A stretch of DNA of 64,000 nt from a bacterium (GCA_024680555.1 JAILCC010000018.1:49174-113173), one strand, 5' to 3'; positions 13,412-46,451 are shown, numbered from the stretch's first letter. A program made the numbers and translations. The notes: generated by a model from the sequence alone, not told the origin.

Positions 13412-15573
13412 TACTTGCGTTTGCTGCTATTTTGTGACGAGTGAGTTCGTTTAACAGAAATGACTTCCGGCATTGCTTCGATAGAGTTCATAATTCTTGT
13501 TAAACTGTCTATGTCTTGAACTTCTAAGCCCAATTCAATAATGCCTTTTTTGCCGTATCTTGTAAAGCCGTTTGCAAAGGCGATGTTAATTTTGTTGTCC
13601 GTAACTTTTGTCAAAATTTGTTGTAAAATACCGATTTTATCTTCAGTCTCAATTTTAATCGGAACGACATAAGTTTTGTTGAGGTGAACTTCTGCCCAAC
13701 TGATTTTCATGAGCCTTTCTTCGGGAATTTCCTTTAAAGTAGGGCAATCCGCTCTATGAACGCTGACACCCCTGCTTCTTGTTATTGCTCCGACTATAGG
13801 TTCGCCCGGAATTGGAGTGCAGCATTTAGAAATGTGGTATAGCATACCTTCTAAACCGATGATATCTTTTGCGCCCGATTTGGATTTGCCGGTTGTTTTT
13901 ATAACAATGTCGCCGCCTTTATCAAGTTTTTTAAGTTTATTTATAACTTTGTGGGTGGAAGTTTCGCCGTATCCTATTGCGGCAAACAAATCTTCTTGAG
14001 AAGTGAAATTCAAGTCTTTTGCAATTCTTTCAAATTCACCGATATTTTCATATTCATCAAAATGCGCTTTTGATATTTCGTGTTCAAGCATTTCTTTGCC
14101 GAGGGTAATATATTCATCACGTTTATTCTTTTTGAACCAGAGTTTTATTTTTGATTTAGCTGCGTTTGTGGCGCAAATATTTATCCAATCCCATTTTGGA
14201 TTGGGTGTCTTTGCCGTGATAATTTCAACAATATCACCAGTGAAAAGTTTTGTTTCCAACGGAACAATTCTGCCGTTGATTTTTGCGCCGACGGTTTTGT
14301 GTCCGACTTGCGTGTGTACACGGTACGCAAAGTCGATTGGTGTTGCTCCGCTCGGTAAGTCGATAACGTCTCCCATCGGAGTGAATACAAATACTTGGTC
14401 TGAGAATAGGTCTAATTTTACTAAATCAACGTATTCTTTTGCATCTTTTGCATTTTCCTGTACTTCTGCAAGTTTTCTGAGCCATGTGAATTTTTTATCA
14501 GCTTCCGTAACTTTTACGGAGCCTGCTTCTTTGTATTTCCAGTGTGCAGCAATACCAAATTCCGCTTCTTCATGCATCTGCTGCGTACGAATTTGAATTT
14601 CAACAGGTTTACCTTTAGGACCTATTACAGATGTGTGCAAAGAGCGGTAGAGGTTGCTTTTGGGCATTGCTATGTAGTCTTTAAATCTGCCGGGGATGGG
14701 TTTAAAAATAGAGTGAATTATACCTAAAACTCCATAGCAGTCACGCAAGTTATCAACAATTACACGGACAGCAATTATGTCGAAGAGCTCGTGATAATCT
14801 TTTTGCTGACGTTTCATTTTTGCATAAATACTGTAGTAGTGCTTTGCTCTGCCGTTGATTTTTGCCTTAATATCGGCTTTTTGCAGAGAAAGTTGAATTG
14901 TTTCTATTAATGTCTGTACAACTTCATCTCTTTCGGCTTTTGTTTGAGCTACATTCTTAACTACTTCATAATATTTTTCGGGTTCGGTATATCTGAGCGA
15001 TAAATCTTCAAGCTCTGCTTTGATACGTCCGATACCGAGACGGTTTGCCAAAGGTGCAAATATTTCAAGGGTTTCTTGCGCAATGCGTTTTTGTTTTTGA
15101 ATAGGCATGTGATTAAGAGTACGCATATTATGTAATCTGTCTGCGAGTTTTAATAAAATTACCCTTACGTCTTCCGCCATAGATACAAACATTTTTCGGA
15201 AGTTTTCTGCTTGTCTGTCCTCTTTGGACTTAAATTCCAATTTCCCTAATTTTGTTACGCCGTTAACAAGCTTCAAAACTTCTTCGCCAAATTTTTCCTT
15301 AATTTCGTCTGCCGTAACCTCTGTATCTTCAAGTACATCGTGCAATAGAGATGCCATAATTGTAGGAGTGTCCGCCTTAAACTCCGCAAGAATTTTAGCA
15401 ACTTCAACAGGGTGAATGATATAGGGTTCTTCGCTGGCACGGTACTGACCTTCGTGCTTGGCAGCAGCGTATTCATACGTTTCCCTTATTTTATCAATGT
15501 CCTCTTGCGAGCGACCTTGTTTTTTTAATATAATTTCAAGAGGTTCAAATATATTTGCCGGCATGGATTTCAC
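13411..15573 (-). CDS. rel: Bifunctional (p)ppGpp synthetase/hydrolase (RelA/SpoT homologue)
   Basis: HD hydrolase motif (HPVEVA...LLHDVLEDT), RelA/SpoT synthetase region (YRSLHTSV), TGS and ACT-like C-terminus. Confidence 0.92.
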   Translation of the reverse strand: MKSMPANIFEPLEIILKKQGRSQEDIDKIRETYEYAAAKHEGQYRASEEPYIIHPVEVAKILAEFKADTPTIMASLLHDVLEDTEVTADEIKEKFGEEVLKLVNGVTKLGKLEFKSKEDRQAENFRKMFVSMAEDVRVILLKLADRLHNMRTLNHMPIQKQKRIAQETLEIFAPLANRLGIGRIKAELEDLSLRYTEPEKYYEVVKNVAQTKAERDEVVQTLIETIQLSLQKADIKAKINGRAKHYYSIYAKMKRQQKDYHELFDIIAVRVIVDNLRDCYGVLGIIHSIFKPIPGRFKDYIAMPKSNLYRSLHTSVIGPKGKPVEIQIRTQQMHEEAEFGIAAHWKYKEAGSVKVTEADKKFTWLRKLAEVQENAKDAKEYVDLVKLDLFSDQVFVFTPMGDVIDLPSGATPIDFAYRVHTQVGHKTVGAKINGRIVPLETKLFTGDIVEIITAKTPNPKWDWINICATNAAKSKIKLWFKKNKRDEYITLGKEMLEHEISKAHFDEYENIGEFERIAKDLNFTSQEDLFAAIGYGETSTHKVINKLKKLDKGGDIVIKTTGKSKSGAKDIIGLEGMLYHISKCCTPIPGEPIVGAITRSRGVSVHRADCPTLKEIPEERLMKISWAEVHLNKTYVVPIKIETEDKIGILQQILTKVTDNKINIAFANGFTRYGKKGIIELGLEVQDIDSLTRIMNSIEAMPEVISVKRTHSSQNSSKRK

Positions 15574-15614
15574 TCTATTCTTTTGAACATTATTTTACAA
15601 CTTTTTTATGGCTT

Positions 15615-15923
15615 ATGCAAAATATCGACGATTTAAAAATAACAAAAACCAATGATGGCGTGTCTTTTCGGGTAAAAGTGGTTCCGAATTCTTCTGCTTC
15701 AAAGGTTGTAGAGGCAAATGAGGAATTTGTAAAAATAAAGCTGAATTCTCCGCCTATAGAAGGCAGGGCAAATAAAGAAGTTATCGAATTGCTTTCAAAA
15801 GTTCTTGATGTCCCAAAGACATCTATAGAACTTGTAAGCGGGGATAAAAGCAAACTAAAAACGCTGAAAGTTCCTCTCAGCGAGGAGCAAGTACGTGAAA
15901 AAATACTTGAAGCGCTGAGCTAA
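15615..15923 (+). CDS. yggU: DUF167/YggU family protein
   Basis: 'VSFRVKVVPNSSASKVV...IKLNSPPIEGRANKEVIELLSKVL...LVSGDKSKLK' is a typical YggU pattern. Start moved to the internal ATG. Confidence 0.75.
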   Translation: MQNIDDLKITKTNDGVSFRVKVVPNSSASKVVEANEEFVKIKLNSPPIEGRANKEVIELLSKVLDVPKTSIELVSGDKSKLKTLKVPLSEEQVREKILEALS

Positions 15924-15924
15924 A

Positions 15925-16098
15925 TTATTCTTCAGGTTGAAGTTTACCTGTTATACTTACGTGAGTTTCGCCAACTTCTAAATTTTCTATTTCTTCCTGT
16001 TCATCAGTGAAGAAAAATTCTGCCCTGGCGAAATCACCTGTGTTTTCACGTCTTTTTACTTCATAGCTTAATTTTCTTAAAAATTCCTTTATTGCCAT
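15925..16098 (-). CDS. Small hypothetical protein, 57 aa (below the ORF-track cutoff)
   Basis: My own translation: MAIKEFLRKLSYEVKRRENTGDFARAEFFFTDEQEEIENLEVGETHVSITGKLQPEE. AAAGGTGA RBS lies 6 nt upstream and a sigma-28-type promoter 42 nt upstream. Confidence 0.5.
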   Translation of the reverse strand: MAIKEFLRKLSYEVKRRENTGDFARAEFFFTDEQEEIENLEVGETHVSITGKLQPEE

Positions 16099-16139
16099 AA
16101 TATCACCTTTCTAACAATACACTTATCCCTACGGTATCC

Positions 16140-16167
16140 TTATCGGCAGTTTTGATGAAAAACTTTA
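16140..16167 (-). promoter_or_regulatory. Sigma-28 (FliA)-type promoter, TAAAGTTT-N12-GCCGATAA
   Basis: The minus strand reads TAAAGTTT (16167-16160), a 12-nt spacer, then GCCGATAA (16147-16140). Both octamers match the consensus exactly. Confidence 0.7.
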
Positions 16168-16473
16168 GGTTTTTAGGGTAAATTGTTACAATTAGTTAAC
16201 AAATATTGCAGATGCAACATTTGATAAAGACGGTAATTTAAATCTTGTAATTGAAGATTTGTATAATTTTAATCAAGTCAGAACAAGTGTCAAAGGTAGA
16301 GTTGGCGAGAAATTTCAAAATCAGGGTGATTTAATTCCCTATTACATAAGAGTAGACGTAAAATCTCCAAAACAGAATTAGATAAATGTTAAAATAATGG
16401 GAAAAGGTTATAAGTTTTCGGATATGCACAAATGCACTCTACTTCAATAAATTTTTTTGTAGTATGATTTTAT

Positions 16474-17241
16474 ATGCAGATGAGGAATATTATGACTACA
16501 ATGCTAAGTTCACAGGTTCAGGAAATAAGTGAGTTAGTTCAAAAAACTAACCTAAAACACATTGCCATAATTATGGACGGAAACCGCCGTTGGGCAAAAA
16601 GCAAGTTTCTTCCCTCAGCCGCAGGTCATTCTCAAGGGGTAAATGCACTGAAAAGAACAGTTACCGCTGCGCAGGATGGCGGTGTTAAAACGCTTACGGT
16701 TTATGCTTTTTCGACTGAAAATTGGAACAGAAAGAAAGAAGAAGTTGATTTTTTAATGGAATTGCTTGCTCAAACTATTGCCAATGAATTATCCGAACTT
16801 TTTGAAAAAAATGTCAGAATGAAATTTATCGGCGATTTAACAAGATTTTCTGAAAGACTTCGCAAAATTTTTGATGATGCAGAAGAAAAAACAAAAAATA
16901 ATACGGGTTTGTTGTTGCAAATAGCTATAAATTACGGCGCAAGAGATGAAATTAAAAATGCGGTAAAACAGATTGCTAAAGAAGTTCAAGCAGGAACATT
17001 GCTTCCTGATGAAATAACCGAAGATACTATTTCTCAAAGACTTTATACAAAAGATGTTGAGGAGCCTGATTTGTTAATACGTACTGGTGGTGAAATGCGA
17101 ATAAGCAACTATCTTTTGTGGCAAATTGCATATAGTGAATTTTATGTGACAGATACGTTTTGGCCCGATTTTGGCGAAGATGATTTGCTTAGTGCTATAA
17201 GAGCTTTTGCAAAAAGAGAAAGAAGATTTGGTAAAAACTAA
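16474..17241 (+). CDS. uppS: Undecaprenyl-diphosphate synthase
   Basis: 'HIAIIMDGNRRWA', 'LTVYAFSTENWNR' and 'DLLIRTGGEMRISNYLLWQ' motifs. The true start could be a downstream ATG. Confidence 0.92.
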   Translation: MQMRNIMTTMLSSQVQEISELVQKTNLKHIAIIMDGNRRWAKSKFLPSAAGHSQGVNALKRTVTAAQDGGVKTLTVYAFSTENWNRKKEEVDFLMELLAQTIANELSELFEKNVRMKFIGDLTRFSERLRKIFDDAEEKTKNNTGLLLQIAINYGARDEIKNAVKQIAKEVQAGTLLPDEITEDTISQRLYTKDVEEPDLLIRTGGEMRISNYLLWQIAYSEFYVTDTFWPDFGEDDLLSAIRAFAKRERRFGKN

Positions 17242-17846
17242 TGAACGAGCTTGTTTTTGCTACATCTAACCCAAATAAAATTCTCGAGGTGCAAACAAAA
17301 ATTGATTCGGAAAAATTTCCGATAAAAATTATTCCTGTTCCGCAGCCGTTTGACCCTGTTGAGGACGGCGAAACATTTTTGGAAAATGCTTATATAAAGG
17401 CGTTTGAAGCTGCAAAAAAGACAGGCAGGCTTTCTTTTGCTGACGATACAGGACTTTGCGTTGAGGCTTTGAACGGCAGACCGGGGCTGTATAGTGCAAG
17501 ATATGCACCGACAGGTGAAGAAAAAGTTCAAAAAATGCTTTCTGAAATGGAGCCGTTTAAGACTCTTGACGAAAGAAAAGCGTATTTTACCTGTGCGATA
17601 GTCCTTGTCAGACCTGACGGAGAAACGATTTTTTCTTGTCAATCAAAGTTTGAAGGGTTTATTGATTTTTCGCCAAAAGGCTCTCACGGCTTCGGGTATG
17701 ATCCGATTTTTATGGTGAAAGAGTTGGGCAAAAACCTTGCAGAGCTTTCCACCGAAGAAAAAAATACGGTTTCTCACAGAGCTTTGGCACTAAAAGAATT
17801 TACCAATTGGCTCAGTTCTCATAACATCTTTGAAGATGCTCAATAA
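17241..17846 (+). CDS. rdgB: dITP/XTP pyrophosphatase (RdgB/HAM1 family)
   Basis: 'LVFATSNPNKILE', 'ADDTGLCVEALNGRPGLYSARY', 'GFGYDPIF' and 'SHRALAL'. The start overlaps the uppS stop (ATGA-type). Confidence 0.9.
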   Translation: MNELVFATSNPNKILEVQTKIDSEKFPIKIIPVPQPFDPVEDGETFLENAYIKAFEAAKKTGRLSFADDTGLCVEALNGRPGLYSARYAPTGEEKVQKMLSEMEPFKTLDERKAYFTCAIVLVRPDGETIFSCQSKFEGFIDFSPKGSHGFGYDPIFMVKELGKNLAELSTEEKNTVSHRALALKEFTNWLSSHNIFEDAQ

Positions 17847-29670: not shown

Positions 29671-29705
29671 AGCAAAATCCAAGACAGCGGATTTTGCGGT
29701 AGAGC
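29671..29705 (+). repeat. Solo junction fragment of the interspersed repeat family (X-unit 3' end plus X-unit 5' end)
   Basis: AGCAAAATCCAAGACAGCGGATTTTGCGGTAG matches the X/X junction at 30562-30590 and 30803-30833. It forms an 8-bp hairpin CAAAATCC/GGATTTTG. Confidence 0.8.
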
Positions 29706-29744: not shown

Positions 29745-29778
29745 GTGGTGCGGAGTTTCGCACCACTTTTTGTTTTTT
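29745..29778 (+). terminator. groESL intrinsic terminator
   Basis: Stem GTGGTGCG/CGCACCAC, 6-nt loop, T-rich tail TTTTTGTTTTTT. Confidence 0.85.
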
Positions 29779-29811: not shown

Positions 29812-29838
29812 TAAAGTTTTTTCGCATGCTGCCGATAA
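29812..29838 (+). promoter_or_regulatory. Sigma-28 (FliA)-type promoter, exact TAAAGTTT-N11-GCCGATAA
   Basis: TAAAGTTT at 29812-29819, 11-nt spacer, GCCGATAA at 29831-29838. ATG of the next ORF is 30 nt downstream. Confidence 0.75.
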
Positions 29839-45868: not shown

Positions 45869-45947
45869 TGTTTTCTCCTTAACTTTACTTACAACTACAT
45901 TATCCCACAACAAGTATTAAGAATTGTAAAAATATAGTCAAAAAACC

Positions 45948-45974
45948 TAAAGTTTTACAAAAAAATGCCGATAA
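45948..45974 (+). promoter_or_regulatory. Sigma-28 (FliA)-type promoter, exact TAAAGTTT-N11-GCCGATAA
   Basis: TAAAGTTT at 45948-45955, 11-nt spacer, GCCGATAA at 45967-45974. ATG of the 47-aa ORF is 34 nt downstream. Confidence 0.75.
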
Positions 45975-46008: not shown

Positions 46009-46152
46009 ATGACGGGACAACAATTTTATTGGGCTGGCACATATAGTTTTAAAGCCGAAATACCAATGTTTTTAAGAGCAATCAAAAAACAGATTGACGA
46101 AATTCTTGCCAAAATTGACAAAATGGACAAGGCGGCAGAACATCAGTTTTAA
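46009..46152 (+). CDS. Small hypothetical protein, 47 aa (below track cutoff)
   Basis: My translation: MTGQQFYWAGTYSFKAEIPMFLRAIKKQIDEILAKIDKMDKAAEHQF. Strong AAGGAG RBS 8 nt upstream and a strong terminator downstream. Confidence 0.55.
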   Translation: MTGQQFYWAGTYSFKAEIPMFLRAIKKQIDEILAKIDKMDKAAEHQF

Positions 46153-46206: not shown

Positions 46207-46451
46207 GCGGATTTCGGCAAGTGCGCCGTGTGAGCATAGCGAACCCAGCACGTCCCTGTGAATAATTCGACGAAATGAAAGAAAATTGAAAGATTTTCTG
46301 AAATGAAGTGAAGAATTATAAACAGCCGATAATCCAAGACAGCGGATTTCGGCAAGTGCGCCGTGTGAGCATAGCGAACCCAGCACGTCCCTGTGAATAA
46401 TTCGACGAAATGAAAGAAAATTGAAAGATTTTCTGAAATGAAGTGAAGAAT
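46207..46451 (+). repeat. Interspersed repeat family, locus C: full Y unit plus 3'-truncated Y unit
   Basis: Y1 at 46207-46341 and Y2 at 46342-46451 are near-identical direct repeats and match loci A and B. Confidence 0.92.

Follow-up and report, generated by a model that had tools for sequence, protein, structure and literature searches.

The window analysed here is a 64-kb stretch of bacterial DNA (64,000 nucleotides) in which an ORF track with a 60-aa cutoff leaves an ORF-free gap of 550 bp (15924-16473) between a DUF167/YggU gene and a Prenyltransf/UppS gene, as the preliminary description had stated. A 57-aa ORF lies in this gap on the minus strand, convergent with yggU (the stop codons are 1 nt apart, and relA/spoT follows beyond yggU) and divergent from uppS. 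Reading out the minus strand confirmed the two promoter octamers, the 12-nt spacer between them, and the 57-codon frame that follows a ribosome-binding site and encodes the protein previously quoted; 41 nt separate the -10 element from the ATG, a trivial departure from the 42 nt given before. The features of the locus are:

16184..16191, minus strand: upstream element TTGTAACA, with 16 nt between it and the -35 octamer
16168..16176, minus strand: A-tract CTAAAAACC abutting the -35 element, a putative proximal UP element by resemblance
16160..16167, minus strand: -35 octamer TAAAGTTT, within which CTAAAGTT is invariant in eight aligned orthologues and in L026
16148..16159, minus strand: 12-nt spacer TTCATCAAAACT, whose sequence is not conserved among orthologues
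16140..16147, minus strand: -10 octamer GCCGATAA, within which GCCGATA is invariant in all orthologues
16131..16134, minus strand: predicted transcription start, placed 6-9 nt past the -10 element by analogy with known sigma-28 promoters
16114..16120, minus strand: 5′-UTR box GTATTGT, invariant in the orthologue alignment (A2)
16104..16111, minus strand: Shine-Dalgarno sequence GAAAGGTG, preceding the ATG at 16098
15925..16098, minus strand: 57-aa ORF including the stop codon, with its ATG at 16098 and the product MAIKEFLRKLSYEVKRRENTGDFARAEFFFTDEQEEIENLEVGETHVSITGKLQPEE
15852..15882, minus strand: terminator-like hairpin CGCTGAGAGGAACTTTCAGCG (15882-15862) followed by TTTTTAGTTT, antisense in the yggU 3′ end

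The ORF is absent from the track because of its length, and in that sense it had rightly been called unannotated; NCBI, however, carries an identical product ("MAG: hypothetical protein K6A44_05540", on a 135,787-bp contig). Its frame is conserved in relatives, with about 25 homologue clusters in total. A word-indexed search returned 21 of these (53-63 aa, 55-100% identity) and a profile search three more, and across the 21 clusters 13 positions are invariant and another 13 nearly so (MAIKEFLRKLSYEVKRREN..F...EFYFP......LEVGET.VSITGKLQPE). The family is narrow, since a full HMM search of 1.84 billion representatives gave only five small relatives, together with three long repetitive proteins that are probably spurious. 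With DNA from eight distinct lineages, pairwise dN/dS was 0.04-0.34, with synonymous differences of 0.5-0.9 per site, near saturation, in most cross-lineage pairs; variable columns were distributed over the three codon positions as 28/18/49, and the ATG start is conserved in the orthologues. These patterns argue strongly that the ORF is a genuine protein-coding gene under purifying selection.

Transcription would start near 16131-16134 and yield a leader of ~35 nt that contains the GTATTGT box and the Shine-Dalgarno sequence, and the transcript would end at the hairpin and T-run in the convergent yggU 3′ end, giving a monocistronic mRNA of ~270-280 nt. The terminator-like hairpin is kept in the minimum free energy fold of the predicted transcript, and free-standing terminators follow the ORF at the corresponding position in L004 and L026. 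An SD-like GAAAGG/AAAGGG core is present in all orthologues a few nt (at most ~12) upstream of the ATG. From promoter to terminator, the sequence elements show what would be a complete monocistronic small-protein gene. Two other candidate elements in the leader were rejected: a hairpin pairing the GTATTGT box with codons 2-3 had a folding energy of -0.26 kcal/mol and no covariation, and a CsrA-type leader is not conserved, GGA motifs being present in the window, L012, L007 and L008 and missing in L001, L004, L005 and L009.

The gene usually adjoins yggU-relA/spoT, and the convergent arrangement with yggU recurs in L005, L007 and L012. Together with the 1-nt separation of the stop codons, the predicted terminator inside yggU, the resulting overlap of ~60-70 nt that the convergent 57-aa and yggU mRNAs would have at their 3′ ends, and the position of relA/spoT further downstream on the same strand, this arrangement would suit a role at the RNA level, in which the transcript acts as an antisense or 3′-overlapping partner of the yggU mRNA or on read-through into relA/spoT and the ORF is incidental. 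We consider such a role quite improbable, given the strong purifying selection on the protein and the conservation of the Shine-Dalgarno sequence and ATG. The gene and promoter also persist without yggU in L004 (and none was seen on the short L026 contig), with terminators of their own in both, and an Rfam scan of 15000-17000 (E <= 1) matched no RNA family, its sole match being a meaningless eukaryotic lncRNA. Only close relatives keep the synteny with relA, which L004 and L026 do not have.

A second conserved small ORF, 48-49 aa in length (MEQIKEKKRSKRIFSVLLDEIKKLEENIL...), lies directly 3′ of the 57-aa ORF in L001 (L001:3183-3329), L009 (L009:2039-2188) and L008 (L008:1090-1167); L005 has a degenerate copy of it, and the window has none. 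The ancestral unit may have been bicistronic.

The promoter is conserved along with the gene. For nine distinct lineages (the window, L001, L004, L005, L007, L008, L009, L012, and L026), we retrieved the gene together with the DNA preceding it, and in all nine TAAAGTT(T/C) is followed, after 11 or 12 nt, by GCCGATA(A/T), which ends 41-46 nt before the ATG. The invariant blocks of the alignment are CTAAAGTT, GCCGATA, GTATTGT, and the Shine-Dalgarno core; TTGTAAC is near-invariant, there is a conserved A-rich run that ends in (C/T)C, and the spacers and flanks are unrelated in sequence. With synonymous sites of the neighbouring coding sequence close to saturation (pS 0.5-0.9), these blocks stand out as a clear promoter footprint. 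The promoter accompanies the gene despite differing upstream neighbours (uppS in the window, yceD-rpmF-plsX in L001 and L009, 8xMP-dnaE in L005, and trypsin-flagellin in L004), and it is under strong purifying selection in all nine lineages.

Within the window, TAAAGTTT-N10-13-GCCGATAA occurs three times against 0.00 expected (100 shuffles), which bears out the earlier description of this site as a third promoter of its type, and relaxing the scan to three mismatches added only poor sites, of which those placed on the ORF map are intragenic. A sigma-70-like site at 16293-16266 matches its consensus at 11/12 bases; relatives do not keep it at this position, and such sites are no more frequent than chance would give. 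The view that a chance motif happens to lie beside a spurious short ORF could draw on the shortness of the ORF and its lack of a known domain, but three copies where none is expected, conservation of the motif in nine lineages, and dN/dS well below 1 refute it and leave it a negligible probability.

The two octamers are identical at 16/16 bases to the sigma-28 consensus, TAAAGTTT-n11-GCCGATAA (PMC2859248), and the spacer is one base longer, within the TAAA-N15±1-GCCGATAA range of such promoters. E. coli FliA sites, including that of tar, have been catalogued (PMC4183435), and the E. coli flgM class-3 promoter, which we read for comparison, is TAAAGATT-N11-GCCGATAA. By its sequence, TTGTAACA-N16-(A-tract)-TAAAGTTT-N12-GCCGATAA, the promoter shows itself to be of the FliA/SigD/WhiG (sigma-28) class, and it would be read by a sigma-28-type sigma factor. 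The earlier call of a sigma-28-type promoter is upheld by the consensus match and by the conservation in nine lineages; the link to a flagellar FliA is weaker than had been assumed. The N12 spacing, previously a source of concern, is a normal variant in this clade, since orthologous promoters alternate between N11 and N12: the spacer of the 57-aa gene promoter is 11 nt in L001, L004, L007 and L026 and 12 nt in the window, L005, L008, L009 and L012, and the 180-aa gene promoter described below has an N11 spacer in the window and an N12 spacer in the L015 orthologue.

Compared with the class-3 sigma-28 promoters of Enterobacteria and Bacillus (e.g., E. coli tar and flgM P3), the promoter has the same octamers, a spacer within one base of N11, and, like them, a short leader and a monocistronic late-type gene; its A-rich upstream region is like the UP element of the B. 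subtilis hag promoter. It differs from them in that N12 is as common here as N11, that an extra conserved TTGTAACA lies one or two helical turns upstream, and that the flagellin genes of the clade are not under a sigma-28 motif. The upstream element, TTGTAA[AC]A (TTGTAAAC in L004), is found 15-16 or 26-27 nt upstream of TAAAG in 3/3 window promoters and 9/9 orthologous promoters, two spacing classes that differ by one helical turn. It is absent from the L015 promoter of the 180-aa gene orthologue and also precedes the flagellin promoters of the clade. Together with the A-tract, it would serve as an UP element or an activator site.

The two sister promoters in the window lie on the plus strand, with the following features:

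29771-29778, plus strand: TTGTAA[AC]A, upstream of the -35 octamer of the first sister promoter
29812..29838, plus strand: first sister promoter, TAAAGTTT-N11-GCCGATAA, upstream of a 180-aa Q-rich ORF (29869-30411)
45924-45931, plus strand: TTGTAA[AC]A, upstream of the -35 octamer of the second sister promoter
45948..45974, plus strand: second sister promoter, TAAAGTTT-N11-GCCGATAA, upstream of a 47-aa ORF (46009-46152)

The 180-aa protein is an orphan with 48 homologue clusters for which no family was found, and it is predicted to be disordered (AF2 pLDDT 52). The 47-aa ORF (MTGQQFYWAGTYSF...) is followed by a hairpin (agccgacatttatgtcggct). We considered it as an equivalent of the second ORF of 48 aa that relatives carry beside the 57-aa gene, and rejected this, there being no similarity between them. 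The start that the gene caller chose for the 180-aa orthologue in L015 runs into the promoter; the true start probably lies 42 nt further downstream.

A 180-aa-family gene in L015 (L015:8480-10591) is divergent to uppS-rdgB, in the position that the 57-aa gene has in the window (15925-17846). Because the 180-aa gene of L015 occupies the position of the 57-aa gene, rearrangement breakpoints coincide with sigma-28-type promoters. Two adjoining conserved orphan genes in the window (30859-32232, minus strand), encoding 269 aa (Gly/Ser/Ala-rich) and 182 aa (coiled-coil-like) with no Pfam family, remain beside the 180-aa gene in L015 and L016.

The protein encoded by the 57-aa ORF has the charge distribution described before, a basic N-terminus and a very acidic C-half: the net charge is about +3 over residues 1-20 and about -9 over residues 21-57 (pI 4.7). 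An AF2 model built from the family alignment has a mean pLDDT of 62, in which only residues 2-28 are helical and residues 29-57, modelled at low confidence, have no secondary structure; the confidence is lowest (<50) at residues 35-41. No family had been recognised for it, and our searches bear this out: the 57-aa protein had no Pfam match at E <= 1, nor had any of the 21 family members at E <= 10; a PDB profile search found no relative (the best E-value, 0.94, was to an unrelated protein); the HMM search above gave nothing beyond the narrow family itself; and hhalign against E. coli FlgM gave a probability of 0.1%. A relationship to small flagellar chaperones or regulators, for which the preliminary description had proposed looking, was not detected in the Pfam, PDB profile and FlgM comparisons, and the protein belongs to none of the Pfam families FlgM, FliS, FliT, FlgN, FlaG, FlbT, FliW, and CsrA. 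The product is an orphan and probably a disordered protein that acts by binding a partner protein. Its conserved N-terminal helix would be basic and amphipathic, and its acidic tail, with the conserved LEVGETxVSITGKLQPE motif, would be disordered.

FlgM (PF04316), the anti-sigma-28 factor, is among the closest known counterparts. Both proteins are small and largely disordered (by prediction for the 57-aa protein), FlgM proteins as short as ~65-67 aa exist, and in both cases the gene has its own sigma-28-type promoter. The two share no sequence similarity, however; the ordered conserved helix is N-terminal in the model of the 57-aa protein and C-terminal in FlgM, and, unlike FlgM, the 57-aa protein is strongly acidic and its gene is not beside flgN, flgA or flgK. 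The most likely role of the 57-aa protein, though one that we still regard as doubtful, would be that of a regulatory or checkpoint factor or a secretion-linked accessory, FlgM-like in manner (a small disordered protein whose gene is read by the very sigma factor on which it reports) without being a FlgM homologue. The FliA-dependent E. coli genes flxA, ynjH, yjcZ and ycgR, of unknown or accessory function and scattered outside the flagellar clusters (PMC4183435), are a similar kind of gene; they are unrelated to it in sequence, and the 57-aa family is restricted to a narrow clade.

The DNA is probably from a member of the Gastranaerophilales (a gut melainabacterium), and a distant homologue of the 180-aa protein carries the name "Candidatus Gastranaerophilales bacterium". 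Melainabacteria are the nonphotosynthetic sister group of Cyanobacteria. We know of nothing on the transcriptional control of motility in Melainabacteria, nor of any genetically tractable member, and a full-text search pairing Melainabacteria with fliA or flgM found no described sigma-28 regulon. Flagella are present in some Gastranaerophilales and have been lost in others (PMC3787301, PMC4040986, PMC5877343). The 64-kb window contains no flagellar genes, and no flagellin was named for the source MAG among the search matches. In related loci, a flagellin gene is found two genes away from the 57-aa gene in L004, and in L001/L017 the 57-aa gene shares a 127-kb contig with flagellin, fliS and flaG; there, fliS is immediately preceded by a perfect GCCGATAA whose -35 element is poor.

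Flagellin genes are archetypal sigma-28 targets. Four flagellin genes of the clade lack the sigma-28 motif and share TTGTAAAA-N15/16-GAATAA-N13/14-GGGyAT, a pattern whose GAATAA-N13/14-GGGyAT part was found nowhere else in 213 kb. A tblastn search with E. coli FliA found no gene for a FliA/WhiG-family sigma factor in the window and ~150 kb of related loci (~200 kb in total); the only group-3 sigma factor found is encoded in L020. The relevant features are:

L004:1090-1240, L017:9850-10003, L020:9850-10003, and L023:9850-10003: flagellin promoter regions with the GAATAA/GGGyAT pair, SigB/SigF-like
L020:455-1231, minus strand: group-3 sigma factor of 258 aa, near a flgB-flgC-fliE-fliF-fliG-fliH-fliI-flagellin cluster and beside a prepilin peptidase gene

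The L020 factor might itself read the GCCGATAA promoters, with no separate FliA. It is the sole candidate of its group, is 26% identical to E. coli FliA, and scores 109 bits (below the cutoff) against FliA_WhiG. We find this unlikely, because its scores against SigB/F/G and cyanobacterial SigF, 180 and 179 bits, are much higher. In region 2.4 its sequence is GEIRHYLRD, with H where E. coli FliA has D81, which we take to be a SigB/F-type pattern, and the GGGyAT -10 element of the flagellin genes suits such a factor. It may instead be the flagellin sigma factor of the clade. Because no FliA was found, the flagellin promoters differ and the window has no flagellar genes, the cognate factor of the GCCGATAA promoters is one that we infer.

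Membership of the gene in a flagellar FliA regulon is plausible from these sequences. A real sigma-28-type promoter could also belong to a non-flagellar regulon, for example one that serves stress, stationary phase, the surface or pili. Sigma-28-type regulons outside flagella do exist, as with WhiG in Streptomyces and sigma-28 in Chlamydia; all three targets in the window are orphans among housekeeping genes, the flagellin genes of the clade are under a different promoter type, and the 57-aa gene is usually beside yggU-relA/spoT. Flagella have, moreover, been lost in some Gastranaerophilales (PMC4040986), and non-flagellar genes and small genes are among the members of the FliA regulon in E. 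coli (PMC4183435). Weighing against this are the contigs that the 57-aa gene shares with flagellin, fliS and flaG, the TTGTAA[AC]A element common to the flagellin promoters, the GCCGATAA upstream of fliS, and the limitation of the relA synteny to close relatives, L004 and L026 lacking it. A non-flagellar regulon is possible, though we would not call it likely.

We regard it as highly probable, overall, that the locus is a conserved small gene with a sigma-28-type promoter, which would belong to a small regulon and encode a partner-binding product. The 57-aa, 180-aa and 47-aa ORFs would form this regulon, whose link would be to the motility programme of those Gastranaerophilales that are flagellated. 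The locus provides a comparatively validated model of a sigma-28-type promoter for the clade, in which N11 and N12 are both tolerated and an extra upstream element is present, and which could serve to define the regulon across whole genomes; a second gain is a conserved small orphan whose length falls below the common 60-aa ORF-length cutoffs. As an uncharacterised small gene driven by a sigma-28-type promoter, the 57-aa gene is an entry point to the regulation of motility in Melainabacteria. If the regulon is flagellar, its three disordered orphans would be candidates for missing late-assembly regulators (e.g., a FlgM analogue), and the contrast with the SigB/F-like flagellin promoters would point to an unusual late hierarchy with two sigma factors. 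In such a hierarchy, a factor like cyanobacterial SigF/SigB would use the GAATAA-N13/14-GGGyAT promoters of flagellin and a FliA-type factor would drive the lineage-specific disordered orphans (57, 180, and 47 aa), with the 57-aa protein as a FlgM analogue, checkpoint, or adaptor that couples the two tiers; we judge this full scheme improbable.

Three of the four flagellin leaders contain ACAAGGATGT, which matches the CsrA-binding consensus and hints at FliW-CsrA control of flagellin. In the window, intergenic repeats that resemble REP or MITE elements or terminators occur just downstream of groEL and of both plus-strand ORFs with sigma-28-type promoters, at these positions:

29672-29697
30471-30585
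30712-30826
46207-46316
46342-46451

They comprise two tandem pairs of 110-115-nt units, and the hairpin GCAAAATCC-N8-GGATTTTGC occurs three times.
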